A stretch of 64,000 nt of DNA, from positions 8,879-72,878 of the forward strand of contig JAAUZW010000033.1 of assembly GCA_014804385.1 (NCBI GenBank), written 5' to 3'. This document shows positions 25,282 to 64,000 of this stretch, in pieces. Under the pieces are notes generated by a model, which was not told where the DNA came from, did no database searches, and worked only from the letters and a program-made list of their open reading frames with translations. Position 1 is the stretch's first letter. Every line of letters starts with the position of its first letter. This DNA is from Lachnospiraceae bacterium. GTDB taxonomy: Bacteria; Bacillota; Clostridia; Lachnospirales; Lachnospiraceae. The translations under genes and the position numbers were made by a program.

Positions 25282-25316
25282 CTTTAAATGGCCGAAATTT
25301 TAACTTTCGGCCATCA
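25282..25316 (-). terminator. Terminator hairpin overlapping the stop codon of the dehydrogenase gene
   Basis: On the minus strand: ATGGCCGAAA-GTTAAAA-TTTCGGCCAT. The TAA stop lies in the loop, followed by an A/T-rich tail. Confidence 0.55.
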
Positions 25317-26358
25317 CCTTTCCATATTCTTCCCGCTTATCTCTCATAATCGCAAGCCCCTGATCCAACTCCTCTAACGGCAGTCTGTGCGTGATCATTT
25401 CCGCGGGCGCAATACGCCTGCCCTGCAGTCTCTCCAGCACATAATGCCAGTCATCATCCTCCGCATGCGTAAAAGAAGAATTCCATGTCCCCAGCACAGT
25501 CAGCTGGTTGCGCAGGATCTTCCAGTAAACCGGTTTCGCGATCGTCATATCCGAAGCAGGATTACCCACCAACATGATCCGCCCGCCCGGACCTGTCAGC
25601 CCGACCGCCTGCATCACTGTCTCGTTTCTTCCGACGCACTCAAAGAACACATCCGCGCCTTTGCCGTCTGTCCGCTCAAGCAGCCACCTTTCCACATCCT
25701 GCGTCCTGCTGTCACAGTAGTTGTCCTCCGAAAGCCCCAGCTTCACCGCCATGCGTTTCTGAAAGTCCTTGTTGCCGATCACAAGCAGATTCTTCCTCCC
25801 TGATTCCAGTAAAAACATGAGCAGGAAAAGTCCGATTGTTCCCAGACCACAGATCACAATGCGCTCCTCCTGCTGCGGTGCCACCTTTCTCATGGCGTGA
25901 ACCGCCACCGACATAGGCTCCAGCATCGCCGCCTCCTCGTAGCTCACCCCGTCCGGCAGAGCGATCAGATTCTTCTCCGGAACTGCCACGTATTCCGCAA
26001 ATCCCCCATCCCTGCGGGATCCCAGATAGCTGTAGTGTCTGCACATCTCATACTTTCCACGACTGCAGGGCAGACACTCTCCGCAGGGAATCAGCGGAAA
26101 TACACCCACACGCTGTCCCTGCCATTTCGGATCCACATTCGCTCCCACTGCCGCCACCTTCCCTGCAAACTCATGCCCCGGTATGAGCGGATAGGAGTAG
26201 GTTCCCGTATAAAACACACGGGGAATATCAGAGCCACAGATTCCTGCCGCTTTCACAGAAAGCAAGATTTCATTCTCTCCTACAGTAGGAGAGTTTGTCT
26301 CCTCTAATCTCAAATCGTTAACACCATGCAGCACCCATGCCTTCATATTTACAGCCAT
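25300..26358 (-). CDS. Zn-dependent MDR dehydrogenase, putative pentulose-5-phosphate reductase (TarJ-analogous role)
   Basis: It carries GICGSDIP, GHEFAG and CGECLPCSRGKYEMC Zn motifs. I prefer the start MAVNMKAWVLHG at 26358 after AGGAAAGG. The track's 398-aa form would overlap the upstream gene. The function is inferred from neighbours (IspD/TarI-like, epimerase). Confidence 0.6.
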   Translation of the reverse strand: MAVNMKAWVLHGVNDLRLEETNSPTVGENEILLSVKAAGICGSDIPRVFYTGTYSYPLIPGHEFAGKVAAVGANVDPKWQGQRVGVFPLIPCGECLPCSRGKYEMCRHYSYLGSRRDGGFAEYVAVPEKNLIALPDGVSYEEAAMLEPMSVAVHAMRKVAPQQEERIVICGLGTIGLFLLMFLLESGRKNLLVIGNKDFQKRMAVKLGLSEDNYCDSRTQDVERWLLERTDGKGADVFFECVGRNETVMQAVGLTGPGGRIMLVGNPASDMTIAKPVYWKILRNQLTVLGTWNSSFTHAEDDDWHYVLERLQGRRIAPAEMITHRLPLEELDQGLAIMRDKREEYGKVMAES

Positions 26359-26419
26359 ACCTTTCCTGTGTTCGCTGATTCCATGTTTGAGCGTATTCAT
26401 CCAAAATTGACCTCTCTTC

Positions 26420-27157
26420 TCACTCCGGCCTATCCTCAATCTTCTCCCGAAACCGCTCCAGATCCGCTTTCGTGGTGATTTTAAAATTCCCCTCATCTCC
26501 GGGAATCATAGCGATATCCAGCCCCGCCAGGATTGCAGGCTCCGTAGAACCGTTGATCTGTAATATTCGATCCGGCAAAAGCGCTCTGTTCGCCTTATAA
26601 TATTTCCCCAGCACAAAGGCTTCCGGCGCCTGTCCCGCAAAAATTCGAGCGCGTTCTAATAGCGACGATACACTTATGCCGTCTTCGCTGTAATACACCG
26701 TATCCTTCATAGACAGAACGGGAAGCGCCCCGTCATGCCCCGCCAGCGCTTCCAGACACGCAGTAATCATATCCGCCGACAGCAATGGCCTGGCCGCATC
26801 ATGAATCAGAACAATGTCCGACTCCTCCGCATATTTTCGAATATCCTCCAGCCCATTAAAGATGGAGAGCTGCCTGTTTTCGCCCGGCTCAGAAAAGCCT
26901 CTGAACTTTTTCGGCACAGTCCCGTCATTCTCATTCCCCTCCAGATAACCCATATAGTCCAGAATCGTCTTGCGCCACATTCCATCCGCCACAATCTGCA
27001 CCGCATCAATCTTTTCATGCGAAAAGAGCGTCTGCAGGCAGTAGTAAATAATCGGCCAGCCTTTCACCTCTATGTACTGCTTGGGCGTATTGATACCCAT
27101 TCTTGTCCCGGTTCCCCCGGATAAAACCAACGCTGTCACCATATCTGTATCCCCCAT
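26420..27157 (-). CDS. IspD/TarI-family cytidylyltransferase (putative pentitol-5-phosphate cytidylyltransferase)
   Basis: 245 aa. ALVLSGGTGTRMGINTPKQYIEV is the IspD/TarI N-terminal signature. Confidence 0.75.
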   Translation of the reverse strand: MGDTDMVTALVLSGGTGTRMGINTPKQYIEVKGWPIIYYCLQTLFSHEKIDAVQIVADGMWRKTILDYMGYLEGNENDGTVPKKFRGFSEPGENRQLSIFNGLEDIRKYAEESDIVLIHDAARPLLSADMITACLEALAGHDGALPVLSMKDTVYYSEDGISVSSLLERARIFAGQAPEAFVLGKYYKANRALLPDRILQINGSTEPAILAGLDIAMIPGDEGNFKITTKADLERFREKIEDRPE

Positions 27158-27260
27158 AGCAGTCTATGTCTTGTCCTGTACGGCTATGACAACAGCCGCG
27201 GTATACACTGTAATTTTTTCTTCACCCGGGATATCACCGAAACACTCCCTTTTTCTGAAA

Positions 27261-27923
27261 TCAGAAATGAAGCTCCCTGATATTTTTCAGCGTCTCCCCG
27301 TAAGGCGCTTCCTTCCCGAAAAGAAGCGTAGTCCCCAGCACAAAGCCCTTCACGCCTCTGGGCGCATACTGCATGATCTTGTCCGCCCCGCAGGCGCCGT
27401 CCCAATAGATCTCAAATCCCATCTCATCCTTCAACGCCAGCAGCTTCGTGATCTTCTTGCCCACATAGGGCAGATACATCTGCCCCGCATTGCCCGGATT
27501 CACCGACATTACCAGCACCTTCTTCACAATCACTAGCATCTCCATCACCGTCTCAATACTGGTTCCCGGATTGATGGCGATCCCCGGTGTCATGCCCGCA
27601 TTGATGATCTTCTGAAGTGTAGTAGAAGGATGATACTCCGCCTCGGGATGAATATAGACCGTATCGCACTTGCGCAGCTTATCCAAAAAAATATGAATGT
27701 TATTGTTGGGATGTTCAATCATCAAATGAACATCCAAAGGTTTCTCTGTGGCCGACGCAATATAAGCCATGTCATTCAATGACATGGCAAAGTTCGGCAC
27801 ATAACGTCCATCCATAATATCAATATGAAAAGAATCGATGCCGCCAGCTTCTAAATCCCGCACTTCCTTTTCCAGATACCCGTAGTTGGCGCACATCATA
27901 GATGCTGTTAATTCAAAGTCCAT
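27261..27923 (-). CDS. Ribulose-phosphate 3-epimerase family protein
   Basis: SMMCANYGYLEKEVRDLEAGGIDSFHIDIMDGRYVPNF is an RPE signature. The ATG at 27923 follows GAAAGGTGG. The track start at 27947 is a TTG. Confidence 0.8.
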   Translation of the reverse strand: MDFELTASMMCANYGYLEKEVRDLEAGGIDSFHIDIMDGRYVPNFAMSLNDMAYIASATEKPLDVHLMIEHPNNNIHIFLDKLRKCDTVYIHPEAEYHPSTTLQKIINAGMTPGIAINPGTSIETVMEMLVIVKKVLVMSVNPGNAGQMYLPYVGKKITKLLALKDEMGFEIYWDGACGADKIMQYAPRGVKGFVLGTTLLFGKEAPYGETLKNIRELHF

Positions 27924-28026
27924 GAGGCTTTTCCACCTTTCGATCAAGAATATAAGTATAAGCTTATATTAACATTGTATACAAAAGATGTAAATAAAAA
28001 CAGCATGTACCTGTAATAATCCGGTC

Positions 28027-30081
28027 TTATAACATATCCGTCATATCTGACATCCGATTAAAGAAAGGATCTTCCACCTTTAGATTTAAGAAATCCTGAT
28101 CTGTAATCTCCACCCTATGAATCATGGATAAAAAGACCTCATCCAGCTTTTTATCTATCTTTCTGGCAGATATGGGGCACAATTTCAGATATTCCCTGAA
28201 ATACTCGCGAATCCCTTCCTGTGCCTCCTGAAAACATCTGATGTCGCCCTCTCTTCTTGTTTCTTCGTCGTATATCGGATTTCCATTTTCATCAAACTCT
28301 CTGACCGAAGGCATCGGCGCTGTCAGCATTGTCTCAAGAATATAGTAATCCTGAAAAATGGCACTGGTATTCCTCTCTAAAGCATTGTAAAAGGAAATGA
28401 TATCCAAATTTTTCCCCTGCATCTGCTCCTCATCTAATCGAAGGAAATAAATCCCTTTTAAATGATTCGTCATTAACCTGCCCATATACATCTGCGTCGT
28501 TCCCTTTGCAACAAAATCAAAGAAAGCGGTGTCTCCCTCATTTAACTCTTGTCTGTCAATATATATTCGATAATTTTTCCTGCTTTGTTCACTACGGTTC
28601 AGAATTTCCTCTTTATAGTCCAATAATTCCGCCCGTTCATCCGTTTCATCCACGTAAATGCCAAACCGCTTTTCAAGTTGTCCGGACAGGCTACCGCTGA
28701 ATTTCATCTCTCCTACATACTCAATATCCTCTTCGTTTTCCATACCAGCCCGTATTGCCGCCGTTCTGGATGTCAGAAAATAAACAGAAGAATTGCTATT
28801 GCAAAGCTCATCATACAGTTGTTTGATCAGGTATCCGTCCCGGGCACAGAAAAGTATGTTCTTCAGTTGAAATTCTCTTACCCTCTCCCGAAACCACAAT
28901 ACAAAATCACATATCATCGGTGCAAAAAAGACATAACCAATCTCATGGGCCGTGCCAACGCCAATCCGCCGTGCTTCTGTCTCAAACTGAAAAGGACTGT
29001 TAAAAACACGGGACACAAACATGCCGATCCTGATTCTGTCCGACAGGGAATCTGTATAATCCCACAATCCCATATATCCTGCCAGTTCCAGCAGATCCAT
29101 TCCGCTGTATAAACGGCAAGCAGCGATTTCGTTTTTTTCGGCATGCTCTATATCCGCAGTTACATCATCCCCGATGTGAAGATACCTCTTCGCTTTCGTC
29201 TCCTGCCGGTATTTCTGAAAAAGCATCTGCGTCTTTCCCGTCTCATATTCGCAGGACACAAACAAACCTGTATACCCTGTAATACCGCATTTCTTCAAAA
29301 TACCCGTAATCTGTTTCTCATTGTAATAAGAATCGGACACCACAAAGACCTGTTTCCCCCGTGCCACTAACGTTGCAAAGATCTCACAGACATCTCTGCG
29401 GGGAACAACAAGGCCACGGTCAATCTCCCACTCTAACATCGCCATCTGCTCCGGCACAATTTCCGCTATATGATAGGTTTTTTTCATATGCGAATAAATT
29501 TCTATCAGTCTTGGCGCCCGCTCCTTGGACAATTCCTTTTCACTTGCCATTCGTCTGACCGAAAAATCTTCTATCATAATACCGTGCTGCCGCAGCCTGT
29601 CATCCATAAGTTCAAACACATCCGTAGGAAATAACGCCTGACGCATGATCAACGTGTCAAACAAATCAAAACTGACAGCATCATACTCTTCTATCTGCCG
29701 CAGCAATTCCTCTCTGGTGATCCCGGACACCTCTCGAAAATCATAAACGGCACGCTGTACGTCACAGAGATCATTTCCTCTTACATCAAACAGGGCGATC
29801 TGCTGCTCTCTGCATACCCCGCCGATCCTCTTGGCAATGGCGCGGCAGGAACCCGGACGCGCCGCAACCACTATCAGCTTGACTTGGCTCGTAAACGCTT
29901 CCTGCAGGGAGATGATCGGCATCCCGTAGAGCATGCCTTCCTCTCTATAGCCATCTAAGAGCCCAATGATCTGAAATGATTGCCGGATCTCATTCAGCAG
30001 ACGTTCCGTCTCTGTTGCCAGTCCATAGATCGCTATCTTCTCTTTTTTATATTGTTCTAATATTTTTAATAAATCTGACAC
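28027..30081 (-). CDS. Three-part protein: N-terminal Rossmann-like module, HAD-superfamily hydrolase domain, uncharacterised C-terminal half
   Basis: 684 aa. The module-like N-terminus is KIAIYGLATETERLL...IIGLLDGY...KLIVVAA. The HAD motif I-like SFDLFDTLIMR and later HIGDD follow. The C-terminal region of about 330 aa has no motif I recognise. Confidence 0.6.
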   Translation of the reverse strand: MSDLLKILEQYKKEKIAIYGLATETERLLNEIRQSFQIIGLLDGYREEGMLYGMPIISLQEAFTSQVKLIVVAARPGSCRAIAKRIGGVCREQQIALFDVRGNDLCDVQRAVYDFREVSGITREELLRQIEEYDAVSFDLFDTLIMRQALFPTDVFELMDDRLRQHGIMIEDFSVRRMASEKELSKERAPRLIEIYSHMKKTYHIAEIVPEQMAMLEWEIDRGLVVPRRDVCEIFATLVARGKQVFVVSDSYYNEKQITGILKKCGITGYTGLFVSCEYETGKTQMLFQKYRQETKAKRYLHIGDDVTADIEHAEKNEIAACRLYSGMDLLELAGYMGLWDYTDSLSDRIRIGMFVSRVFNSPFQFETEARRIGVGTAHEIGYVFFAPMICDFVLWFRERVREFQLKNILFCARDGYLIKQLYDELCNSNSSVYFLTSRTAAIRAGMENEEDIEYVGEMKFSGSLSGQLEKRFGIYVDETDERAELLDYKEEILNRSEQSRKNYRIYIDRQELNEGDTAFFDFVAKGTTQMYMGRLMTNHLKGIYFLRLDEEQMQGKNLDIISFYNALERNTSAIFQDYYILETMLTAPMPSVREFDENGNPIYDEETRREGDIRCFQEAQEGIREYFREYLKLCPISARKIDKKLDEVFLSMIHRVEITDQDFLNLKVEDPFFNRMSDMTDML

Positions 30082-30118: not shown

Positions 30119-32527
30119 TCATACCAGTCCAAAAGCCATCATCGTCTGCCTATCTTTGATCAGCATCTCATCCGGCAGGTGAATCTTCTCCTTCGGACAA
30201 ATGCGCACTAAGTCGTCATAAATCAATCTCGTCACCTTTGCAAAAGAACTCGCCACCACCACTGCATCGTGCTCATATTCCGGAATTTCTGACGGGGCAA
30301 TCGCCGGAAATCCCAGCTTCCTGACCTCTTCCCAATTTCTGTCAGACACGGCTACGACCTGGCAATATCCTGTTCTCTCCAGATATCGATACAGATGCTG
30401 CCCATATGTACCCATCGCATACACGATTACGCGTCCCCCCCTTTTTACTCCCGGGAAGGGGAAAAGATGATCCAATCCATCTATACCTTCATATAACGTT
30501 CCCGCCCGCGGTGTCATCAGGAAAAGAATAAACGCTCTCCACTGTTCCCGCAGATCATAAATGGCTGCTTTCTCCTCAAACACCCTGTTACCACTCTCAT
30601 ACAATAAACGAAAGCGTCTTCTTTCTGCTTCAGGCTCTCCCTCGCTTTTGATCAGGGAAGAGCCGGTCTGTCTGTAATGATACAGGCATCTATGTATGAC
30701 ATAAATACTGTCCGCCGCGAGCAGACATGGATACACACAAACAGCATCCTCGCCCATCACAATGCGTTCATCGGTTCCCATTAAAAACGGTTCTATACAT
30801 TCCCGTCGAAATAATTTATCCCACAGAACAGGAAAAATACCCCATTCAAAAAAGCTTCTATTTACGATCATACGAGGATATACCTGCTCCAGTAACGACT
30901 CCTTGTCATAATACCCTTCTTCGATGCCATGGAACACTTCTTTATGACTCTCTCCAATGTCTTCAAATCGGCCACACATGACCACATCCGCATCATTTTT
31001 TACCATCTCACGATACAGACATTCCACCATATCCGGTTCCATCCAGTCATCCGCATCCGCAAAGCCAATATACTGTCCCGCCGCCATCTGCAGTCCCGCT
31101 TTGCGGGCGCTGGTATGGCCCCCGTTCTCCTTACTGACAACTCTGATTCGTGAATCACGGCTCTGATACTGGCGGCAAATCTCCAGAGAACGATCCGTGG
31201 ATCCGTCATCCACCAGAATAATATCCAGATTTTGATAAGTCTGTGCACAAATGCTTCCGATACACTCTGCCAAATACGTCTCCGCATTATACACAGGTAC
31301 AATGATGCTTACAAGGGGTTCTCCCGTCCAATAAGCTGTGAAATTATGATGTGTCTTACGTTTGCTTTCCTCCGGCAGTTCCATCCAGTCATTGCCATAC
31401 AAATTTTCCAAATAATCACGGTATCCGCCGGGCACATTTACTGTCAAATCTTCAAACGGCATACGGAGTGTTTTGTCATACACTGCTCTCGGGGCACAAT
31501 CCCGATCTTCATAGATCGTTCCCAAAACACCCACGCAGGACGCCTGATCGAAATCATATTTCGACATATAAGCCTTTTGTCTCTCAAACCAGTCGTCAAA
31601 AACGCTAAGGTCTCCATTTCCCGCGTAAAACGCCTGCCAAATCTGTCTGTTCAGCTCCTTATATTCCGCGTAAAATAATGCTCTCTCCTGCGAGTTATCA
31701 GGCAGACCAATCAGCGGAAACAGGTCGATCCACATAGGATTTGTCTTCTGCACGGTACCGATATTCTCTAAAACAATGGTTCTTTTATCCACCACTTTAG
31801 CGAGCGGATCCGGATAATCATTGTGTCTCTCTGTACCAAAACCCACTAACCCCAGTTCTTCTGTTTCCTCAAACAGCTCCATAAATCTCTGATAATCTTC
31901 CCACGGAAGGAAAATATCAACATCGTCATCCCACGGAATATATCCTTTATGGCGAATCGTTCCCAGCAGGGTGCCGCTGCACACCCAGTAACGCAGCCCG
32001 TGTTTCCTACAAAAATCATCCACATAAGCCAGAATCCGCTTTGCTGTCAGTTTGATCTCCGGAAGAGACATCGGCACCTTGTCCCGTAAATAAGCCTCTT
32101 CTTCCGGATCGGCAAAATCAGTGACCACATAGAAATGCTCTCTCTCCCGATAGCCCATCTGCTCTAAAACAGCACATACCGCAGCCGCCTGACGGGATGC
32201 AATCAATATCAGTACGGAATCATCAAAGGGCTGCAGCCGCTCCTGCACCGTCCAGCTTTGAATCACATCATCGCGTCCGTTTAGGAAACGACAGGCAAAG
32301 TTTTCCGTATCTCTTCTGTACTGTATGACCGCCGCCCTGTCGTCAGATATATACCCTTCTATCCGCTGATAACCCAGATTAGAAAGGATCGTACGCATCG
32401 CAAATCCATACCTCTCCAGTCCGTACAGCAGCACTTTCCTGCCCTGATCCATCACACCCTTTGCGATCAGATCTTCTATCCCATCGGCAATCTGACCGAT
32501 AAAACTTTTCATTTTGTATGATCCCAT
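30119..32527 (-). CDS. Four-part protein: module, LicD-family phosphotransferase, GT2 glycosyltransferase, module
   Basis: 802 aa. The N-terminal module is RKVLLYGLERYGFAMRTIL...GYISDD. The LicD core is CSGTLLGTIRHKGYIPWDDDVDIFLPWEDY. The GT2 domain is VSIIVPVYNAETYL...ILVDDGSTDRS...ADADDW. The C-terminal module is GRVIVYAMGTYGQHLYRYL...VAVSDRN...HDAVVVAS. Confidence 0.8.
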   Translation of the reverse strand: MGSYKMKSFIGQIADGIEDLIAKGVMDQGRKVLLYGLERYGFAMRTILSNLGYQRIEGYISDDRAAVIQYRRDTENFACRFLNGRDDVIQSWTVQERLQPFDDSVLILIASRQAAAVCAVLEQMGYREREHFYVVTDFADPEEEAYLRDKVPMSLPEIKLTAKRILAYVDDFCRKHGLRYWVCSGTLLGTIRHKGYIPWDDDVDIFLPWEDYQRFMELFEETEELGLVGFGTERHNDYPDPLAKVVDKRTIVLENIGTVQKTNPMWIDLFPLIGLPDNSQERALFYAEYKELNRQIWQAFYAGNGDLSVFDDWFERQKAYMSKYDFDQASCVGVLGTIYEDRDCAPRAVYDKTLRMPFEDLTVNVPGGYRDYLENLYGNDWMELPEESKRKTHHNFTAYWTGEPLVSIIVPVYNAETYLAECIGSICAQTYQNLDIILVDDGSTDRSLEICRQYQSRDSRIRVVSKENGGHTSARKAGLQMAAGQYIGFADADDWMEPDMVECLYREMVKNDADVVMCGRFEDIGESHKEVFHGIEEGYYDKESLLEQVYPRMIVNRSFFEWGIFPVLWDKLFRRECIEPFLMGTDERIVMGEDAVCVYPCLLAADSIYVIHRCLYHYRQTGSSLIKSEGEPEAERRRFRLLYESGNRVFEEKAAIYDLREQWRAFILFLMTPRAGTLYEGIDGLDHLFPFPGVKRGGRVIVYAMGTYGQHLYRYLERTGYCQVVAVSDRNWEEVRKLGFPAIAPSEIPEYEHDAVVVASSFAKVTRLIYDDLVRICPKEKIHLPDEMLIKDRQTMMAFGLV

Positions 32528-32561: not shown

Positions 32562-33680
32562 TTAAGACATCAGAAACCGCATATAATTCTCTTTATTTTC
32601 CTTTGCGGTGGTGGTGGGTCTGCCCAGATCCTCTCTGGAACCAATGGCACACTTTACCTCGATCAGCGATAAATCCCGCCTTTCTTTGGCGTTTGTCAGT
32701 TCTGTTTTTAGTGCCTCAAGGCTGGCTACCGTCACCGCATTCGGATAACCGCATACTCTCGCGATCTCCGAAAAATTCAGATTACCCATCACCGTCGGCT
32801 GACCGCCCACAGTCTCATGCGCACCGTTGTTGATGATAATATGGATCAGATTCCGTGGACGGTGATTCGCGATTACCGGCATCGCCCCCATATGCATCAA
32901 CGCTGCGCCATCCCCATCAATACACCAGATCGTCTTATCCTGTCGCTGCAACGCCACACCCAGAGCAATGGAGCTGCAATGTCCCATGGATCCTACCGTT
33001 AAAAAGTCCCTCTCATGAGACTGTCCCAACCCTGTCCTGATCTCGAACAGCTCTCTGGACGCCTTACCTGTGGTGCTGACGATCGGGTCATCACCGCTTT
33101 GCTCCACAATACACTTGATGATCTCTTCCCTGCACAGGGTATTGCCATTTTGATAAACCACCTTGCCGTCATATTGCAGGGCGCCTTTACGGACAACGAA
33201 CGCCACGTCCTTCCCCTGCTTAAGCTCTTTTTGGAAATTGTCCATGCACTGCCGCACTTCCTCATCTGAGGTCTCTTCACCAATTACATAATAGGAAATG
33301 CCCATATCTTCCAAAAGCCGACAAGTTATCTCTCCCTGATAAATGTGCTGTGGTTCGTCATGCACACCCGGCTCGCCACGCCACCCGACGACAAAAATCA
33401 TGGGAATCCCATAGACCTTATCATGCAGAAGACTCGCTACCGGATTGACAATATTACCCTCACCGCTATTTTGCATATACACCACAGGAACCTTGCCTGT
33501 CGCCAAATGATATCCGGCCGCCAACGCCACGCAATTCCCCTCGTTTGCCGCAATGATATGATGGCTGGAATCAATGCCGTAAGTATTCATGAGATAATTA
33601 CACAGCGCTTTGAGTTGACTGTCCGGCACTCCCGTGTAAAAATCCGCCCCCAAAACACTCACAAATTCTTCAACTTTCAA
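32562..33680 (-). CDS. Phosphonopyruvate decarboxylase (ThDP-dependent)
   Basis: 372 aa. The N-terminus FYTGVPDSQLKALCNYL and the ThDP motif IDGDGAALMHMGAM...NNGAHETVGGQ are typical of Ppd/AepY. It is clustered with PEP mutase. Confidence 0.8.
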   Translation of the reverse strand: MKVEEFVSVLGADFYTGVPDSQLKALCNYLMNTYGIDSSHHIIAANEGNCVALAAGYHLATGKVPVVYMQNSGEGNIVNPVASLLHDKVYGIPMIFVVGWRGEPGVHDEPQHIYQGEITCRLLEDMGISYYVIGEETSDEEVRQCMDNFQKELKQGKDVAFVVRKGALQYDGKVVYQNGNTLCREEIIKCIVEQSGDDPIVSTTGKASRELFEIRTGLGQSHERDFLTVGSMGHCSSIALGVALQRQDKTIWCIDGDGAALMHMGAMPVIANHRPRNLIHIIINNGAHETVGGQPTVMGNLNFSEIARVCGYPNAVTVASLEALKTELTNAKERRDLSLIEVKCAIGSREDLGRPTTTAKENKENYMRFLMS

Positions 33681-34824
33681 TGTCGCTCCTCCCTATCTTT
33701 CGGTATATCTGTTCCAAGGTTTCCTTATCTAACGCAACCGGATGGTTTTGCAGTCTCGTCAGATTAACCGATTTAGTCAATATCATATAATCCTCTTCTC
33801 TTATTACCGGCGCCTGCAGTTCCAGCCTCTCCACCAAGGTAAAAAATGACCTCGCAGCCGCCTGCGGCCCGTCGCATCCCATAGCGTTTGCCAGCCCGTC
33901 AAAAACCTGCGCCAGATGCTCTCGTCCTCTCGCATCAATACATTGATCACCGTGTGAAAGCATCCATGACCAGAGTTCTCTCACGCACAGCGCCGCCGCA
34001 TGTCCATGCGCGATACCGTATAAGCTGGTCAGTTTATAGCACATTGCATGTCCTGCGGTCGTCTGCGTTATATTGATGGCTCTGCCCGCCATATTCGCGG
34101 CTTTTAGCATGCCGACATTGCCCTCCTGCTCATTGCCGAGATAGCTGTCCAGATAATGCAGGATCATGCGGATTACTTCCACGGACAACCTCCTGCTCTC
34201 CTCCGTACTTTTGATTGACCAGTAGGATTCCACAGCATGACAAAACGCATCCAGCATCGCCGCTTTCCGATGATAAGGCGGTAATGTTCTTAATGCCTCC
34301 GGATCCACCAAAACCGCATCCGGTATGCAGCTCTCATGCGCTACGGACTGCTTTTCTCCCTCATAATAGATCACCGCAAACCTGGTAGCCTCCGATCCTG
34401 TCCCTGCTGTGGTCGGTACTGCCAGAAACGGAATATCATTCGAAATGATCTCCTGCTCTAAATAGCATACATTGTGATCCATTCCGCTGTAGAGTTTGAT
34501 ACATTTTGCAACATCCATAGCGCTGCCGCCACCCACCGCAGCAATCGCGTCCGCATCGGATTCCAGGAAAGCATTTACACCGGCCACGACGGATTCATAA
34601 GTCGGATTCGGCTGAAAAGCACTGAAACGCACCACCTGAATCCCCAGCCGTTTCTCCAGCGTCTCAAAATACCGGTCGATCCTCATCTTCCTGATTGAAG
34701 CGCCGCATACCAGAAACAGGCATTTGTGCACAGATGCCTTCATCCATTCGTCCAGATAGGCATAATCATCTGCCGCATCCAGCACCACTTGATTTGAATT
34801 CTGCCGCATACTATCTTCCCGCAT
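33670..34824 (-). CDS. Iron-containing (group III) alcohol dehydrogenase, putative phosphonoacetaldehyde reductase
   Basis: 384 aa with the Fe-ADH fold (AVGGGSAMDVAK, metal-binding His region HAVESYW...HGHAAAL). It sits between PEP mutase and Ppd where AEP clusters carry a transaminase. The substrate is inferred from context. Confidence 0.6.
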   Translation of the reverse strand: MREDSMRQNSNQVVLDAADDYAYLDEWMKASVHKCLFLVCGASIRKMRIDRYFETLEKRLGIQVVRFSAFQPNPTYESVVAGVNAFLESDADAIAAVGGGSAMDVAKCIKLYSGMDHNVCYLEQEIISNDIPFLAVPTTAGTGSEATRFAVIYYEGEKQSVAHESCIPDAVLVDPEALRTLPPYHRKAAMLDAFCHAVESYWSIKSTEESRRLSVEVIRMILHYLDSYLGNEQEGNVGMLKAANMAGRAINITQTTAGHAMCYKLTSLYGIAHGHAAALCVRELWSWMLSHGDQCIDARGREHLAQVFDGLANAMGCDGPQAAARSFFTLVERLELQAPVIREEDYMILTKSVNLTRLQNHPVALDKETLEQIYRKIGRSDIES

Positions 34825-36842
34825 TAATCTTCCTCCGGTATCAGACGGATAATCTCCTTAAACGGCATCAGCATCTTATCGCATTCCTGCGCTCTGTGAT
34901 TTTCCAGAATCATAGTCGCCGCCTGCTGAATGGCAGGAACCGTCGCTCTGAGTAACTGATTGGCATAAATCACAACGTTAACGCCCCGTTTTTTGAATTC
35001 TTCCTCCGTGACAGAATTAAAGCTAGTCGGCACCACCACCAGATAAGCATATTTCTCTCTGGCGCGGAATTTCTCCACAAACTCAAATATCTCATCAGGA
35101 TCCTTTTTCCTGCTGTGGATCATGATCGCGTCAGCGCCCGCTTCACAGAACGCAAACGCCCTATCCAAAGCATCCTGCATCCCCTGCTCTAAGATCAAGC
35201 TCTCTATTCTGGCACAGATCATAAACTCCTGGGTCTTCTGCGCCTTCTTCCCGGCACGAATCTTTTCGCAGAAATGTTCTATATCATCCTGCTGCTGTGA
35301 CACTTCCGTGCCAAACAGACTATTGCGCTTTAACCCAATCTTATCCTCAATAATGATCATCGACACGCCGAGACGTTCCAGTGTCCTGACTGTATACACA
35401 AAATGTTCCGTCTTACCGCCGGTGTCCCCGTCAAAGATGATGGGTTTCGTAGTCACCTCCATCAGATCCTCTATCGTGCGGAAGCGGCTGGTCATATCCA
35501 CCAGTTCAATATCCGGTTTCCCCTTGACCGTGGAATCACAAAGACTCGACAGCCACATGGCGTCAAACTGACGGGCGCAGCCATCCTGCCAGACTACCGT
35601 GTTTTCCACCACCAATCCCGTCAGCCCATCGTGAGCCTCCATGACCGTCACGAGCCCCTTCATTTTCAGTTCTTTTCTCAGCCGTCCTCTGCGGATATCG
35701 GGCATAGCCACAGCTGCCCTTGTCCTCGCATCCAGCTCTTTATATTTTTCATCCTCCGCATAGGGAAATTCCACCAATTTCCCGCCATAGGAAGCCAAAA
35801 CAGAGGCCGCCTCATCCCGGATCGGTTTCTGAAAACCTTTCCGCCAGTCGTCCCCGTGTACCACATAAGCGGGCTTATATTTCTCCAGATTTTCACGATA
35901 CGATAGTGTCTCCTGTTTCACAACACGGTAAACGTTTGCGATATTCTCAAACAGCGCTTTCCGCTCTGAAAAAGGTACAAGCGGGAACCGTTTGAAAGAG
36001 GCAACCGCCTCATCCGAGAGAACACCTACGATCACTTTCCCCATTCTCCCGGCCCGGCGGATCAATTCTATATGACCCGAGTGTAAGATATCCGTGCTAA
36101 AGCACATATAAACCGTCCTGCGCTCCACTTCCTCCAGTCTGTTGCTCACGATCGCAAGATCCTGCGCATCATCGATCTCCGCGCACAGCATATCTTCCAC
36201 ATCCATCGGCACAATGTTGCATTTGCTCGTTACAAGGTTAAGCGCATTCTCCGCGTAGCATTTTCTTTTCTGCTCATCACCGCTCTCACAGAATTCCACT
36301 ATCTTTTCCAGCCAGATCTTCCAATCCTGCCGGTTTAACTTATAAAGTGGCTGTGCCGCCATGGCATTCTGGAACAGATCGACCCCCACCCCAGTAATAT
36401 GTCCACCCTGCACCACCGCCTTAAAATCCTTTGCCGGAAGCGGCAGGGTACTGCTGACTGTCATGCAGCTTAACTCACACGCCATCACCCTGTCAAGCAC
36501 CTGATTTTCAAACACAAGGTCACCGTGCATCAATATCAGGTCGTCATCCAGAAACTCACGGGCCAGATAAATACTGTAAATATAATTGGTCTCCCGGTAG
36601 ACCGGATTCTTCACATACGTGATGGAAAGCGGCATCTGCAGACTCTGACAATACTTCACGAGAGTATCATCAAACAATCCCGTTGTGATCACCACTTCCT
36701 CTATGCCGGCCTCCATGACCATCCTCAGCTGTCTGGACAGAATGGTCTCCCTGGAACTGATCTCCGTCATACATTTGGGCTGCTCTGCCGTCAATACCCC
36801 CATGCGGCTGCCTAATCCTGAATTTAAAATCAACGCTTTCAT
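34824..36842 (-). CDS. Triple fusion: LicC/PntC-like nucleotidyltransferase, HxGH cytidylyltransferase, phosphoenolpyruvate mutase
   Basis: 672 aa. Residues 1 to about 235 read MKALILNSGLGSRMG...KCM...NPVYRETNYIYS. Residues about 240-370 read VYMCFSTDILHSGHIELIRRAGRMG (HxGH). Residues about 385-672 read VMEAHDGLTGLV...IIEDKIGLKRNSLFG (PepM/isocitrate-lyase superfamily signature). Confidence 0.85.
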   Translation of the reverse strand: MKALILNSGLGSRMGVLTAEQPKCMTEISSRETILSRQLRMVMEAGIEEVVITTGLFDDTLVKYCQSLQMPLSITYVKNPVYRETNYIYSIYLAREFLDDDLILMHGDLVFENQVLDRVMACELSCMTVSSTLPLPAKDFKAVVQGGHITGVGVDLFQNAMAAQPLYKLNRQDWKIWLEKIVEFCESGDEQKRKCYAENALNLVTSKCNIVPMDVEDMLCAEIDDAQDLAIVSNRLEEVERRTVYMCFSTDILHSGHIELIRRAGRMGKVIVGVLSDEAVASFKRFPLVPFSERKALFENIANVYRVVKQETLSYRENLEKYKPAYVVHGDDWRKGFQKPIRDEAASVLASYGGKLVEFPYAEDEKYKELDARTRAAVAMPDIRRGRLRKELKMKGLVTVMEAHDGLTGLVVENTVVWQDGCARQFDAMWLSSLCDSTVKGKPDIELVDMTSRFRTIEDLMEVTTKPIIFDGDTGGKTEHFVYTVRTLERLGVSMIIIEDKIGLKRNSLFGTEVSQQQDDIEHFCEKIRAGKKAQKTQEFMICARIESLILEQGMQDALDRAFAFCEAGADAIMIHSRKKDPDEIFEFVEKFRAREKYAYLVVVPTSFNSVTEEEFKKRGVNVVIYANQLLRATVPAIQQAATMILENHRAQECDKMLMPFKEIIRLIPEED

Positions 36843-37735
36843 TTTTCATCCTGCCTTTCGCCGTTTTCCGCCCGGTCCAGCCTTGTCAAATACTCCTTAT
36901 AGGAGATTTCCGTATCAAATATGAGCCCGGTATGTATTGCTGTCCCGATCTCATATCTTTTCCAGGCACCGTAAGTGCTTCTCAGAATGTTGCGGTACCC
37001 CTTGGGCACACGAATCTGCAGATTCTCATACGGCATCCATTCCGTTTCTTCGTAATCACTGACATTCCTGATTCCATAGCTGCTGCCCCTGTAGAAAGAG
37101 AGCATGGCGATCTTCTTACTGCCCGATCCGTTATATCGGCAAATGTGCTCCTCGAATTCCTGAAAGTACGGGTTGACGCTCTTCGGATCCGTTTTGAGCA
37201 CCTGGTCTGCATATTTTAAACTCTTCTTCCACAGATCCCGCAGTCTGCTGACAAATTCCAACCCTTCTGCCGCCGGCGGCAATTCATCCAACGGAAAAAT
37301 ATCGATAAAGATCCCTTGATTGACCGGCAGCCTTAAATCCAGTTCATCTTCCATTATGGCAGTGGTCTCACTGTTGCGCAGCTTGGCCGACCCCCTCCTC
37401 ATACCCGCATCCGAATGCTCCGTCTGCCAGAAATAGGGGTACTTAAACTCTTCCGGCGCTATCTCGCACAGAATCCGGTAATCCTCCCGCGGCATCGTCA
37501 GATCCACGTCATCGTCCCAGGGAATGTAGCCCCCGTGCCGAACCGCCCCCAGCAAGGTCCCGCCCTCGGCATAATAGCGCAGATGATGCTTTTCACACAC
37601 ATTCATAAACAGCTGCAGCAGATCCATCTGCACTGCCCATATTTTTTTCATGTCCGCGGACACGACATAACCGCCATCCCGCGTCTCTTCCTCATAAAAA
37701 GTCTCCGGCAGACTGATATGTTGTAAATTCAGCAT
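36839..37735 (-). CDS. LicD-family phosphotransferase
   Basis: 298 aa. GGTLLGAVRHGGYIPWDDDVDLTMPREDY is the LicD signature. Its stop overlaps the next gene's start by 4 nt. Confidence 0.8.
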   Translation of the reverse strand: MLNLQHISLPETFYEEETRDGGYVVSADMKKIWAVQMDLLQLFMNVCEKHHLRYYAEGGTLLGAVRHGGYIPWDDDVDLTMPREDYRILCEIAPEEFKYPYFWQTEHSDAGMRRGSAKLRNSETTAIMEDELDLRLPVNQGIFIDIFPLDELPPAAEGLEFVSRLRDLWKKSLKYADQVLKTDPKSVNPYFQEFEEHICRYNGSGSKKIAMLSFYRGSSYGIRNVSDYEETEWMPYENLQIRVPKGYRNILRSTYGAWKRYEIGTAIHTGLIFDTEISYKEYLTRLDRAENGERQDEK

Positions 37736-44395: not shown

Positions 44396-46216
44396 TTACC
44401 CCGCCTTCTTGCTAAGCTCCTTTTTCAATGCTTGAATCAGCCTGTCATTATCTTGTTCATTTCTTATCGCCAGTCTCAAATACTTTCCTCCTGGTATCTT
44501 CTCCGATAAATCCTTCACAAACAAATTATACTTTATAAGCATTGTTCTGGCTATCTCACCCGCCATAACGTCTCCCGTCAGTTCGATCATGACATAATTG
44601 GCTTGTGACGGAATAACACGAATTCCATCTATCCCATCCAGTTGTTTCTGAAACCTAGTACGTTCCGCCCGAAGTAGCTTTAGGGCTTCCTCATAGTCTC
44701 GCCTGTATTTTTCCTCTATCTGCATATAAAATTCTGCAAAAGAATTGATATTCCAGATAGCCACATCCTTTTTCAATCGCTCAATCCTGACGGTATCTCC
44801 AGAGGCCAGAATGCCGAGCCGCAACCCCGGTACTCCATATGATTTGGAGATACTTTTTATCACATACAAATGCTTATTCGCATCCAGAATGTCTTGACTA
44901 ATCAAAGAACTATCCAACTCATCCGAAAAATCCAGAAAGGACTCATCTACCACAAGAGAGATCCCTTTCCGTCCCGTCCACTCAATCAATTTCCGTATAC
45001 CGTCTACAGGAATGTAGCTGCCGGACGGATTGTCCGGATTAACAATGATCAAATTTTGAATATTCTTGTCCTAAAAAAAATCTATCAATTCCTCAGCGGT
45101 GTATTTATAATCAGAATTATCAGGTACAAATGCAATGGAATCTTCCTTTCTGTAACGGTTCGGATATTCTTCGAAAGTCGGCCTCGTAAATCCCGTTTCC
45201 CCACTCAATTCTTCCATAAGAGCTTTGATCAGTTCAGCCGCCCCGTTACCCACTACAATATTTTCTTGAAAAACTCCAAAATTCTTAGCCGCAAGCAGTG
45301 AATTTACCCTCATACCGGACGGGTACTGAGTCAACAATTTCTCAAAACTTGCCTTTATCTCATCCATTAATTTCTGAGGTGGAAAATACGGATTTACGAG
45401 ATAGCAAAAATCAACCAATTTAGGATATCGCCAATATCCTCCATAGCGGGCTTTTATTAACGATACTTTCTCCTCTTCATCCGGCGAAAACATGGAAGAA
45501 GCAATATCCAGATCCTGTATATCGTCAATCTCATACCACAGCTGTCCATCCAGCCTCTTCGCTTTAATTTCCGGGTCATCCAGCATGGTTATAACCCGCA
45601 AAACCTGTTCGTAATACTCGTTATTACCCAGCGCTACGGAATATGCTTCTAAAAAAGGAACATAGTGTGTCTTCGAAAAATGCTGGCTGAACTTATAGAT
45701 ATTAACCGTTTTATAATAGTCATGAATATCTTCAAAAACGAATTTTTTCCCCGGAACGAACGCCTCTATCGTATCATCCTCACTTATTTTTATGCATGTA
45801 CCGTCCATCCAGCTCTCGTATTTGTCAACTAATGCCAGTGTCTCGCGGGGGTCTTCCACTAATACATCGAGAACACTATCCTCAAAAATAAGATCCGACT
45901 CCAGTAATATCGTATCTTCCTTGAGTAAATACTCTTTTGCAAGCATCAGAGAATAGATATTATTCGTCTTATCATAGACCGGGTTATTAACAAAGGAAAT
46001 CGGCGTAGAGATATTCAATGTCTGTATGTAATCAATCAGTTTCTGTCCCTGATATCCGACTACAATTACGATCCGGGATAAATGAAGCTTCTCCAATTGA
46101 TGGAGCATTCTGTCAATCAGCGTTACATTGTTTACCTTCACCATACACTTCGTATTATCACGGGTCAGATCTTTTAATCGTTTTCCCATCCCTGCTGCCA
46201 AAATAATCGCCTGCAT
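44396..46216 (-). pseudogene. LicC-like nucleotidyltransferase fused to a class I/II PLP aminotransferase/decarboxylase fold, interrupted by one in-frame TAG (45073-45071)
   Basis: The upstream ORF (45071..46216) is MQAIILAAGMGKRL...NPVYDKTNNIYS, then the start of an aminotransferase fold, ending ...EELIDFF-TAG. The same frame continues DKNIQN(L)IIVNPDNPSG...SISKSYGVPGLRLG (PLP lysine region) to 44396. Confidence 0.7.
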
Positions 46217-62203: not shown

Positions 62204-63238
62204 TTACCTCGGCAAAATATCAGTGGAGTCCTTTTCTGTAATACCTACGCTGCATTTTCCCAATAACTTTTCTAAATCCTTTTGCTCATAGGCACTCATC
62301 TGATTTGTTACTTTATACCCCAGATTTTTTTCTGTCAGGATTTCATTTGGAACAATATCCTTTATTGCCACAACTTTCTTTTCTCTTTTCCGATACTCCG
62401 TCTCCGCTGATGCCAGCTCCCAAACAGAATCATTTCCCTGAATATCCGCCACAGTCTTTAGTGCCCTTTTGATTTCCAATAAATGTCCCGCTTCTTTAGC
62501 GGCCTGATAATCTGTTCTCTCTTTTCCTTCTTCCAAAACAATATGCTTTTCAAAAAAGCGGCTGCCGTTCAGATATGCAAACTGAAACAGCGGGATATCG
62601 TCCTCCTTATAAGAAGTGTGATCCGCGTATCCCACTTCCAGCCCAAAAAGAGCTCTGTACTTTGCTATCCTGCCCAGTTTTGCATTCTCTTTCTTCGTTG
62701 GGAACGACTGAAAACCGTGCATCAATAAAATTCGCTTTTCGGAATACGCACGAGGAAGCTTCTGCAACGCATATTCTATATCTGCAAGCGTCCTTCCTCC
62801 GATTCCCAAAATAATCACCTTATCCAGCTTATCCATCTGTCTAAGCATCATATAGTGATTAAAGTTAATGGAGTGCACTTCTATCATGTCATACAATTCC
62901 TGATGCGTCATACAGAACTCCATGGCGCACATATCCACAGGAAGAAGCACCACATCCAGCTTTTTTTCAAACTTAATATATTTAAGCAGCTTTATCCACT
63001 GCTCCTTTTCAAAATACCAGTTAAAACACTCAGACTGTGCTATAACTTCAGGAACATAAGACTCTTCCGGATTCAGCATAAGCTGGAACTTAATCGCATT
63101 ACTCCCTGCCTTTTTAGCCCGTTCAGCCAACTGATACAAATAGGCAATGTCTCCTTCATGTGAAAAAGCAGTTTCAGCATAAATATATATTTCATCGACA
63201 CACAGTTTTCTAACGCCGTTTGTTTCTTTCACTGTCAT
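62204..63238 (-). CDS. NeuB-family (sialic/ulosonic acid synthase-like) enzyme with C-terminal SAF domain
   Basis: 344 aa. Its layout parallels NeuB/SpsE: YAETAFSHEGD...AGSNAIKFQ, LMHGFQSFP, VGYADHT, FEKHIVL, and a C-terminal antifreeze-like/SAF segment VVAIKDIVPNEILTEKNLGYK. The N-terminal signature diverges from the usual IAEIGxNHNG. Confidence 0.65.
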   Translation of the reverse strand: MTVKETNGVRKLCVDEIYIYAETAFSHEGDIAYLYQLAERAKKAGSNAIKFQLMLNPEESYVPEVIAQSECFNWYFEKEQWIKLLKYIKFEKKLDVVLLPVDMCAMEFCMTHQELYDMIEVHSINFNHYMMLRQMDKLDKVIILGIGGRTLADIEYALQKLPRAYSEKRILLMHGFQSFPTKKENAKLGRIAKYRALFGLEVGYADHTSYKEDDIPLFQFAYLNGSRFFEKHIVLEEGKERTDYQAAKEAGHLLEIKRALKTVADIQGNDSVWELASAETEYRKREKKVVAIKDIVPNEILTEKNLGYKVTNQMSAYEQKDLEKLLGKCSVGITEKDSTDILPR

Positions 63239-64000
63239 AGTAACCTTCTTCCATAGTTAACTGTATAGATTTTTTGATTCGCGACTCATACATTTCCCTG
63301 AATTCACCATAAGTAATACTTTCATCATTAGGAAGTTTAACAAGACCGTCTTTCTCCATATCATAATGGGGAATATCCGTTTTTTCACTTAATGTGACAA
63401 TATCCCCGAAATATATCTTTTTCTCGGAAATATGATCAAAAATAAATTGTGTTCTTTCCCAGTCCTGGGGCGTATCCACGGTCAATGTCTGATATGGAAG
63501 AATAAACTTTTCAGGCGGAAGAACCGTCAAACATTTATAGTCATCCGGATTAAACATATACACTGCAAGATACTCACTCTTATCCGGATCTATCTTGCTA
63601 TAACAATCTTTAACCGCCGAAACTTTCATGACTTCTCCGGTAACACCGATAGGAAGCATTTCAACCCTGGTATAATCTGCGCCCTTTTCCATATGCTCCT
63701 TTAATGCAAAGTCCAACATAATCGAATCCGTAAAAATGTTATCTCCGGTAACCCTGAGAAGATTATCCGCATTTTCCATTTCCGCTACATCTAACATTCT
63801 GTCAATAACGGAATCCCGGCTGCCTGCATATGCTTCAATTCCGTTTTCTCTTGCAATTTCCAAAAGAATTTTATCCTCTTCATCTATTGAAGTGCACAAA
63901 TATACTTTATCTGCATATTTTAATTCCTTCATAGAGTCAATAATATGCTCTATGGTCTTTTTCCCTCCTATATCCAAAACGGTCTTATGGGGAAGTCTTT
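63210..64000 (-). CDS. Cytidylyltransferase-family protein (CMP-sugar synthetase / SpsF-like), 5' end outside window
   Basis: The reading frame is open to the window edge (…RLPHKTVLDIGGKKTIEHIIDS…AYAGSRDSVIDRM…VTGDNIF). The track's start at 63977 is only a TTG inside the frame. It overlaps the NeuB-like gene by 29 nt. Confidence 0.65.
   Translation of the reverse strand, partial: RLPHKTVLDIGGKKTIEHIIDSMKELKYADKVYLCTSIDEEDKILLEIARENGIEAYAGSRDSVIDRMLDVAEMENADNLLRVTGDNIFTDSIMLDFALKEHMEKGADYTRVEMLPIGVTGEVMKVSAVKDCYSKIDPDKSEYLAVYMFNPDDYKCLTVLPPEKFILPYQTLTVDTPQDWERTQFIFDHISEKKIYFGDIVTLSEKTDIPHYDMEKDGLVKLPNDESITYGEFREMYESRIKKSIQLTMEEGYYDSERNKRR

Follow-up and report, generated by a model that had tools for sequence, protein, structure and literature searches.

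Fusion of phosphoenolpyruvate (PEP) mutase (Ppm or PepM) to nucleotidyltransferase (NT) domains is frequent: around 60% of Ppm are built in this way, and 42 triple fusions, 2.8% of Ppm, contain both a PF12804 and a PF01467 domain (Rice et al. 2019, PMC6697681). The same study noted clusters with a fused plus a separate NT and offered no function for the doubling. In Fom1, the PEP mutase of the fosfomycin pathway, the N-terminal cytidylyltransferase domain (CyTase) is described as making CMP-HEP from 2-hydroxyethylphosphonate (HEP) and CTP (PMC6697681, citing Cho et al. 2017), and no other HEP cytidylyltransferase is known to have been characterised. The Ppm-Ppd-PhpC branch leading to HEP represents 8.5% of ppm neighbourhoods (Li & Horsman 2022, PMC8942020); a HEP exopolysaccharide of Stackebrandtia nassauensis, with HEP esterified to polysaccharide, is cited in that paper as an isolated product. 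Beyond Rice 2019 and Li & Horsman 2022, the literature yielded no characterised dual-NT Ppm fusion, no CMP-HEP:LicD transfer and no Clostridial phosphonoglycan. Here we analysed a triple fusion of this kind, encoded together with its partner genes at positions 32562-36842 of a 64,000-nucleotide stretch from a Lachnospiraceae bacterium (GCA_014804385.1, contig JAAUZW010000033.1), the whole of which is called the window.

The fusion gene, an alcohol dehydrogenase (ADH) gene and a phosphonopyruvate decarboxylase (Ppd) gene form a cassette flanked by two genes encoding LicD domains. We propose, with a probability of about 0.72, that this cassette serves the biosynthesis of CMP-HEP for the phosphonate decoration of a surface glycan. 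The features on which the argument rests are as follows.

36839-37735, minus strand: LicD, 298 aa (PF04991, 2.3e-39)
34824-36842, minus strand: 672-aa fusion of NT, HxGH cytidylyltransferase (CT) and PEP mutase (open reading frame (ORF) call)
36129..36842, minus strand: fusion residues 1-238, LicC/PntC-like NT of the 'HGD' subfamily, the N-domain (PF12804/PF00483, motif, AlphaFold2 (AF2)/Foldseek)
35748..36128, minus strand: fusion residues 239-365, Fom1-type HxGH CT domain (PF01467, match to 5x3d_A)
34824..35681, minus strand: fusion residues 388-672 and stop codon, PEP mutase domain (TIGR02320, EDKIGLKRNS, PDB 1m1b)
33670-34824, minus strand: group III (Fe/Zn) ADH, 384 aa (PF00465 and PF25137)
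32562-33680, minus strand: Ppd, 372 aa (TIGR03297)
30119-32527, minus strand: LicD-GT2, 802 aa (PF04991 at residues 173-378, 2.7e-41; PF00535 at residues 407-535)

The genes are tightly packed. The stop of the 298-aa LicD gene overlaps the start codon of the fusion gene by four nucleotides (36839-36842), base 34824 is common to the fusion and ADH genes, and the ADH and Ppd genes overlap by 11 nucleotides; the LicD-GT2 gene comes next after Ppd. These coordinates, together with the Pfam and NCBIfam matches, agree with the first-pass annotation, made from the sequence alone, which had an Fe-ADH and a Ppd next to the fusion, all overlapping or abutting.

The fusion protein and its partner enzymes

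Pfam divides the fusion into NTP_transf_3/NTP_transferase (PF12804/PF00483) at residues 1-122, CTP_transf_like (PF01467) at 251-346 and PEP_mutase at 390-646. The C-terminal domain scored 403 bits against the NCBIfam PEP mutase equivalog TIGR02320 (cut-off 319.55), and the fusion fell far under the cut-offs of the phosphonopyruvate hydrolase, methylisocitrate lyase and CPEP mutase models. The PEP mutase structure 1m1b matches the same domain (5.9e-40). EDKIGLKRNS, at residues 499-508, corresponds to the EDKxxxxxNS motif that separates Ppm from its isocitrate-lyase relatives, and this motif is present in all 64 aligned triple fusions. As first proposed, the domain is a PEP mutase and not an isocitrate or methylisocitrate lyase. 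Pfam, NCBIfam and motifs likewise agree on the presence of a LicC/PntC-like NT, an HxGH cytidylyltransferase and a PEP mutase on one 672-aa protein, and the motifs named earlier (HSGH at residues 254-257 as well as EDKIGLKRNS) could be read directly in the sequence. A full-length AF2 model of the fusion (22 sequences, 69-91% identity) reached a mean pLDDT of 66.7 and a pTM of 0.50; it was too poor for inter-domain packing and was not used.

The middle domain is a close, orthologue-grade sequence relative of the Fom1 HEP cytidylyltransferase. In a PDB sequence search, residues 239-363 matched the Fom1 CyTase 5x3d_A with 57 of 124 positions identical (46%; 2.2e-36, 127.9 bits), and TagD, ECT and CCT matched far more weakly. 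The order N-CT-PepM also places the CT domain N-terminal to the mutase. HxGH, YKRxP, VVHGDDW and GGxLVEFPY are common to the CT domains examined. The TagD-type motif RTxGISTT was absent from every one of these sequences; since the alignment with Fom1 stops just before that position, its absence is no sign of CT inactivity.

The N-domain is more distant from its characterised relatives. By sequence, only a remote likeness to LicC (1jyk, 4.2e-10) and PntC (6pd1, 2.5e-7) was found in the PDB. The AF2 model, built with 22 family members, has a pLDDT of 95.3, and its top PDB neighbours in Foldseek are PntC-AEPT (6pd2, TM 0.82-0.84) and LicC (1jyk, 0.83). Residues 9-23, GLGSRMGVLTAEQPK, contain an intact GxGSRx8PK motif. 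A HMMER search with residues 1-238 against 1.84 billion representative proteins delimited a compact family of only 201 clusters at E<=1e-30, and conservation was read from 127 diverse members of 36-65% identity. The catalytic residues Arg13 and Lys23 are invariant; they are equivalent to Arg15 and Lys25 of Tde-PntC, whose alanine mutants are inactive (PMC6697681). The residues listed as family-invariant are G9, G11, R13, K23, H106, D108, K138, D139, F140 and Y167, followed by Y196, E198, N202, E222, D224 and D228; taken as segments, Asp108, KDFK 138-141, YAE 196-198, Glu222, Asp224 and Asp228 are invariant or nearly so.

His106, found in 126 of the 127 members, aligns with Glu104 of Tde-PntC. 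This glutamate touches the amine of 2-aminoethylphosphonate (AEP), and LicC has an aspartate at the same position. The N-domain has the PntC/LicC fold and belongs to a separate subfamily, in which an invariant His-Gly-Asp replaces the amine-binding Glu of PntC. Judged from the alignment, His versus Glu/Asp at position 106 may track a hydroxyl versus an amine head group, and the His-for-Glu switch may mark HEP-specific versus AEP-specific PntC-like enzymes.

The two partner enzymes differ in how sharply they can be assigned. Ppd, with both thiamine diphosphate domains (PF02776 and PF02775), scored 468.7 bits on TIGR03297 (cut-off 312.5), so that PEP mutase and Ppd both pass their NCBIfam equivalog cut-offs, in support of the pathway. 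The ADH has the group III fold (PF00465 at 6.9e-37, PF25137 at 2.8e-22); the PDB search gave no nearer relative, and neither NCBIfam nor the PDB discriminates among PhpC, FomC and DhpG. PhpC-type enzymes are very divergent, with a mean identity of 39% (PMC13576164). Because these scores are unspecific, the assignment rests on context, which we consider strong: of 80 species loci, 59 have the ADH gene placed between those of the mutase fusion and Ppd, and many other lineages encode ADH and N-domain as one fused protein. Homologues with 58-70% identity also have the NCBI name phosphonoacetaldehyde reductase. From context and these names, the ADH is predicted to be a phosphonoacetaldehyde reductase of the PhpC/FomC type. 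No class-V aminotransferase (AEP transaminase) adjoins the cassette; the ADH holds that slot.

Distribution of the cassette and its proposed pathway

At least 576 matched stretches from species-representative genomes (GTDB) encode a relative of the N-domain, and 80 loci were kept for the breakdown below.

59 of 80 loci: N-CT-PepM, ADH, Ppd (the window arrangement)
4 of 80 loci: N-CT-ADH (two with a separate CT-PepM)
5 of 80 loci: triple fusion, with neither ADH nor Ppd downstream in the sampled stretch
1 of 80 loci: triple fusion with ADH only
2 of 80 loci: other arrangements
9 of 80 loci: cut by a contig end

Since the gene order fusion, ADH, Ppd recurs in 59 of these loci, it is not a chance arrangement. 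The cassette is common, occurring in dozens of gut and rumen Clostridia species, and the window is a typical member. Cultured carriers include Ruminococcus sp. FC2018, Ruminococcaceae bacterium YRB3002, P7 and AB4001, Clostridiales bacterium FE2011, Bacterium D16-50 and Clostridiaceae bacterium Marseille-Q4145. The architecture is neither rare nor previously unnoticed: it is a catalogued, widespread cassette of a known pathway kind. The first-pass annotation had called the two NT domains on one mutase unexplained; the arrangement is real but is not new, 42 triple fusions having been counted by Rice et al. 2019. What stays of interest is that two HEP-linked NTs are retained together, and that the His/Glu difference is a candidate specificity marker.

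The N-domain also occurs in other company. Its best 150 representatives include 76 stand-alone proteins (200-299 aa) and 40 proteins of 560-659 aa; all six scanned proteins of the latter group are fusions with Fe-ADH. The best 150 also include one each of N+CT+ADH (P0245), N+ADH+LicD (P0299) and N+ADH+LicD+LicD (P0369). Metagenome loci collected with the N-ADH type as seed usually have the order CT-PepM fusion, Ppd and N-ADH fusion, sometimes followed by LicD, and CT was found in 37 of the 41 loci that were testable for it.

Three loci have the N-domain as sole NT, beside enzymes needing a CDP- or CMP-activated donor. L096 (5301-11788) encodes a B12-radical-SAM protein (Fom3-like), a CDP-alcohol phosphatidyltransferase, an unknown 219-aa ORF, a stand-alone PepM, Ppd and N-ADH. 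L131 has the order Ppd, PepM, N-ADH and TagF-like transferase. In L098 (7424-10741), a free homologue of the N-domain stands with an MFS transporter, an unknown 221-aa protein and a CDP-alcohol phosphatidyltransferase, and neither PepM nor Ppd nor ADH is encoded within 10 kb. As the N-domain is alone there beside enzymes using such donors, it most probably makes CMP-HEP; the N-domain itself, in other words, probably activates HEP. The content of L096 suggests a different type of HEP cluster, yielding a phosphonolipid with possibly a C-methylated HEP head group, and L098 looks like a system for the salvage and activation of an imported phosphonate.

From these identities we infer the following chemistry. 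PEP would be converted to phosphonopyruvate by the PEP mutase domain, and Ppd would make phosphonoacetaldehyde, drawing the unfavourable mutase reaction forward. The PhpC/FomC-type ADH would then reduce phosphonoacetaldehyde to HEP, and HEP with CTP would give CMP-HEP, an analogue of a CDP-alcohol. Finally, a LicD-family transferase would put the HEP-phosphonyl group on a sugar hydroxyl with release of CMP. Both NT domains are predicted to be active and tied to HEP. This route, from PEP through phosphonopyruvate, phosphonoacetaldehyde, HEP and CMP-HEP to LicD transfer, had already been deduced in the first-pass annotation, and it gains support from the Fom1-like CT domain and from the reductase names of the ADH homologues.

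The choice of LicD and the nature of the acceptor follow from the setting. Two LicD domains do stand beside the cassette, as first described, with PF04991 in the 36839-37735 product and in the 802-aa protein. The 298-aa LicD overlapping the fusion start is the likeliest CMP-HEP:glycan phosphonyl transferase; the LicD-GT2 is a second candidate, whose donor could be CMP-HEP or CDP-ribitol. Both are equally distant (25-38% identity) from the LicD domains fused to N-ADH, so that no donor is assignable by similarity. The cassette lies in a co-directional run of about 40 kb with GT2, GT4, WbsX, Caps_synth, LicD, methyltransferase, DegT, epimerase and NeuB genes, bordered at low coordinates by housekeeping genes (IMPDH, purine genes, SecA, PrfB). 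In other genomes, the three-gene cassette is inserted into unrelated, varied glycan loci. LicD is the most recurrent neighbour family outside the cassette (20 of 80 loci), and GT2, epimerases, a Wzx-type flippase, TagF-like transferases and sulfatase/LtaS-like proteins also recur. Such neighbours and insertion sites make a wall or capsular glycan with phosphonate-ester-linked HEP the most likely product. Flagellin, named earlier as a possible target, was dropped, no flagellin or flagellar gene being found in Pfam scans of the window's large ORFs.

APS-kinase-like and sulfate-adenylyltransferase/PAPS genes were seen in or beside some HEP cassettes (L010:11911-12429, L006:7227-9967). An adenylylsulfate kinase gene adjoins ppm-ppd in Campylobacter (Li & Horsman 2022, PMC8942020).

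Several observations weigh against the proposed CMP-HEP pathway. The ADH reached only 142.3 bits against a cut-off of 423.7 on TIGR03405, the only phosphonate-specific Fe-ADH equivalog model; this model is its best NCBIfam match, yet stands level with the ErcA, AdhE and lactaldehyde reductase models. In L023 (9974-13133), an AEPT-like class-V aminotransferase takes the place of the Fe-ADH after the triple fusion, and the 15-kb stretch contains no Ppd; this locus is a counter-example to a strict HEP specificity of the HGD domain. The five triple-fusion loci with neither ADH nor Ppd downstream lack the expected partners at that place. A LicD HMM search found LicD within 10 kb in only 13 of 49 full-length GTDB loci, so that LicD is not an obligate partner. 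Within the window itself, at least three possible CDP or CMP donors are available to LicD. Finally, two isofunctional NT domains on one polypeptide are hard to rationalise.

The five loci without ADH and Ppd are L004 (CP069418.1, Clostridiales bacterium FE2011), L029, L042, L075 and L090. No ADH or Ppd was found within 10 kb on either side in L004; L029 has a Ppd-like match (44% identity) upstream of the triple fusion. Either these enzymes are encoded at another genomic site, or a different reaction draws the mutase forward.

If the proposed pathway is correct, the C-P-linked hydroxyethyl group placed on a wall glycan would withstand phosphatases, with possible effects on the adsorption of phages, on immune recognition and on gut phosphorus cycling. 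No earlier chemical description of phosphonate-decorated surfaces in gut and rumen Clostridia is known.

Two nucleotidyltransferase domains and other predicted donors in the window

Each NT domain has independent evidence for HEP: the CT domain through its homology to Fom1, the N-domain because it is fused to ADH and LicD and suffices by itself in L096 and L131. Pairwise identity across 64 triple fusions averages 71% in the N-domain and 74% in the CT domain; all 64 have HGD, and 63 have HxGH. Such equal conservation means that neither domain looks like a relic, and their near-constant association across four fusion topologies argues against simple redundancy.

The two domains might then not be isofunctional, one acting on HEP and the other on another pathway intermediate, for example phosphonoacetaldehyde, on another nucleotide conjugate of HEP or on an unrelated phospho-alcohol, so that two donors would feed two LicD domains. 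The joint occurrence of N and CT in about 90% of testable loci and in four fusion arrangements speaks for this, as do the similar purifying selection on both, the two CT copies found with N in some loci (L079, L083), the two LicD domains flanking the window cassette and the two LicDs of P0369. The CT domain is, however, nearest to the HEP-specific Fom1 CyTase, and N is fused to the predicted HEP-forming ADH and stands alone in L096 and L131. In the window, moreover, ribitol phosphate and amino-alcohol phosphate have dedicated NTs, and no kinase for a further phospho-alcohol was seen. We regard a division of labour between the domains as possible, with perhaps one chance in a few. Its narrower form in the first-pass annotation, that one domain serves a second phospho-alcohol, fits poorly with an N subfamily that is itself fused to Fe-ADH and LicD and is the sole NT in some HEP clusters, and with other phospho-alcohols having their own NTs (TarI-like, 26420-27157; NT-CobD-like, 44396-46216).

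A bolder proposal, which we hold to be rather unlikely, is that the HGD and Fom1-like domains make two different activated phosphonate donors or act in succession, and that, together with paired LicD or TagF-like transferases, they assemble phosphonate esters into tandem or polymeric units. These could be sugar-HEP-HEP, HEP-ribitol-phosphate or a poly(HEP) analogue of teichoic acid and would, if real, give Clostridia that abound in gut and rumen a cell-wall polymer of a new class.

It is improbable that one NT domain is a non-catalytic relic or scaffold, for instance an oligomerisation module for the mutase. PEP mutase is oligomeric and fused domains sometimes lose activity; besides, N alone suffices in some clusters and CT alone in Fom1. 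The catalytic motifs of both domains are nevertheless essentially invariant, CT is also fused to N-ADH without the mutase (L028, L046, L079, L083), and N exists as a free protein.

The two remaining readings were rejected on gene content. The fosfomycin pathway has exactly these early steps, with a Fom1-type CT-PepM, a Fom2-type Ppd and a FomC-type ADH (PMC6697681), so that a diffusible fosfomycin-like phosphonate rather than a glycan decoration could be the product; this is very improbable, as the genes lie within the glycosyltransferase, LicD and sugar-nucleotide run and, in other genomes, in varied glycan loci, and as the window's large ORFs include no B12-radical-SAM methyltransferase (Fom3), no HppE-type epoxidase (Fom4) and no FomD-type hydrolase, the sole radical SAM protein (56997-57965) being without a B12 domain. 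A catabolic ADH, oxidising HEP to phosphonoacetaldehyde as some PhpC homologues do, is hardly credible even though enzymes of the PhpC type can work in both directions and have catabolic homologues (PMC13576164), for the gene overlaps or abuts those of PEP mutase and Ppd and no PhnX, PhnW or PhnY/PhnA is encoded among the window's large ORFs.

The other activated donors of the window are predicted from the following genes.

25300..27947, minus strand: ribulose-phosphate 3-epimerase (RPE), IspD/TarI-like cytidylyltransferase and TarJ-like Zn-ADH (PF00834, PF01128, PF08240/PF00107)
26420-27157, within the preceding group: TarI-like cytidylyltransferase
44396..46216, minus strand: LicC/PntC-like NT and Ser/Thr-phosphate decarboxylase-like pyridoxal phosphate (PLP) enzyme, interrupted by TAG (6oux, TIGR01140, NT motif)
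62204-63977: NeuB and CMP-sugar synthetase-like gene

The first group, predicted to supply CDP-ribitol, lies just downstream of LicD-GT2 and of a 684-aa HAD-like protein (28027-30081). At 44396-46216, ORFs of 381 and 218 aa share one frame and are parted by a single TAG (45071-45073) and six codons; joined, they form a 606-aa NT-PLP fusion. The PLP part is nearest to 6oux (8.3e-52), a threonine-phosphate-decarboxylase-like protein, and scored 166 bits on the CobD model TIGR01140, under its cut-off. The NT at 45071-46216, fused to this amino-alcohol-phosphate-forming enzyme, keeps 'LLESDLIF' with Glu. The same split recurs in two other assemblies (L001, L002), and the locus may represent a pseudogene, a gene expressed by read-through, or a CDP-amino-alcohol enzyme made in two pieces.

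From about 0.50 across the phosphonate cassette and the housekeeping region, the G+C content falls to 0.32-0.44 in the distal glycan locus (40000-64000), which is consistent with a mosaic, horizontally assembled locus. Within 50700-53870, the DegT aminotransferase at 53872-54993 has its C-terminal portion repeated in short ORFs at 51788-52315, and a segment of the 149-aa ORF at 50708-51157 recurs in an ORF at 53689-53817. A small ORF pair (51211-51709), toxin-antitoxin-like by eye, is found between the repeats. The repeats suggest a duplication or an insertion scar within the glycan locus.

Comparison with known systems

What the sequences show is the identity of the domains, the conservation of their motifs and the linkage of the genes; the chemistry, the LicD chosen and the glycan acceptor are inferred. 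Four described systems are comparable. The HEP clusters of Li & Horsman 2022 are from Actinobacteria, Campylobacterota or archaea (PMC8942020), whereas the triple-fusion cassette of Clostridia is known from genes alone. With the Lic pathway of phosphocholine, the locus shares an NT fold and a LicD transferase using a CDP- or CMP-activated head group. Unlike that pathway, it has no choline kinase or transporter, the corresponding Pfam families (LicA/LicB) being absent from the window ORFs, and its substrate is predicted to be made de novo with a C-P bond.

The likeness to the Streptomyces fosfomycin enzymes Fom1, Fom2 and FomC is one of gene content: an HxGH CT is N-terminal to the PEP mutase, with Ppd and a group III ADH as partners, and CMP-HEP, the CT product in Fom1, is predicted to be the CT product here. 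In contrast to Fom1, the window fusion has an additional LicC/PntC-like domain before the CT. The fosfomycin cluster further differs by its Fom3, Fom4 and FomD, which the window lacks, and the genes studied here belong to a glycan locus with LicD. CMP-HEP would accordingly have another fate, as a donor and not as the transient intermediate of the fosfomycin pathway.

The N-domain, for its part, recalls PntC and PntC-AEPT (Tde1415, 6pd1/6pd2) in its LicC-like fold and in the motif GxGxRx(n)PK. The overall scheme is also that of the Pnt pathway (Rice et al. 2019), in which a phosphonate is converted to a CMP-phosphonate and transferred by a LicD-type enzyme to a surface glycan. As in Tde1415, the NT can share a polypeptide with the enzyme producing its substrate from phosphonoacetaldehyde, AEPT there and ADH in the N-ADH relatives. 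Two differences separate these enzymes: the identity with PntC is around 20%, with His106 of the N-domain in place of the amine-contacting Glu104, and the partner is a predicted HEP-giving ADH instead of an AEP-giving transaminase. By analogy, the HGD subfamily would be for HEP what PntC-AEPT is for AEP.

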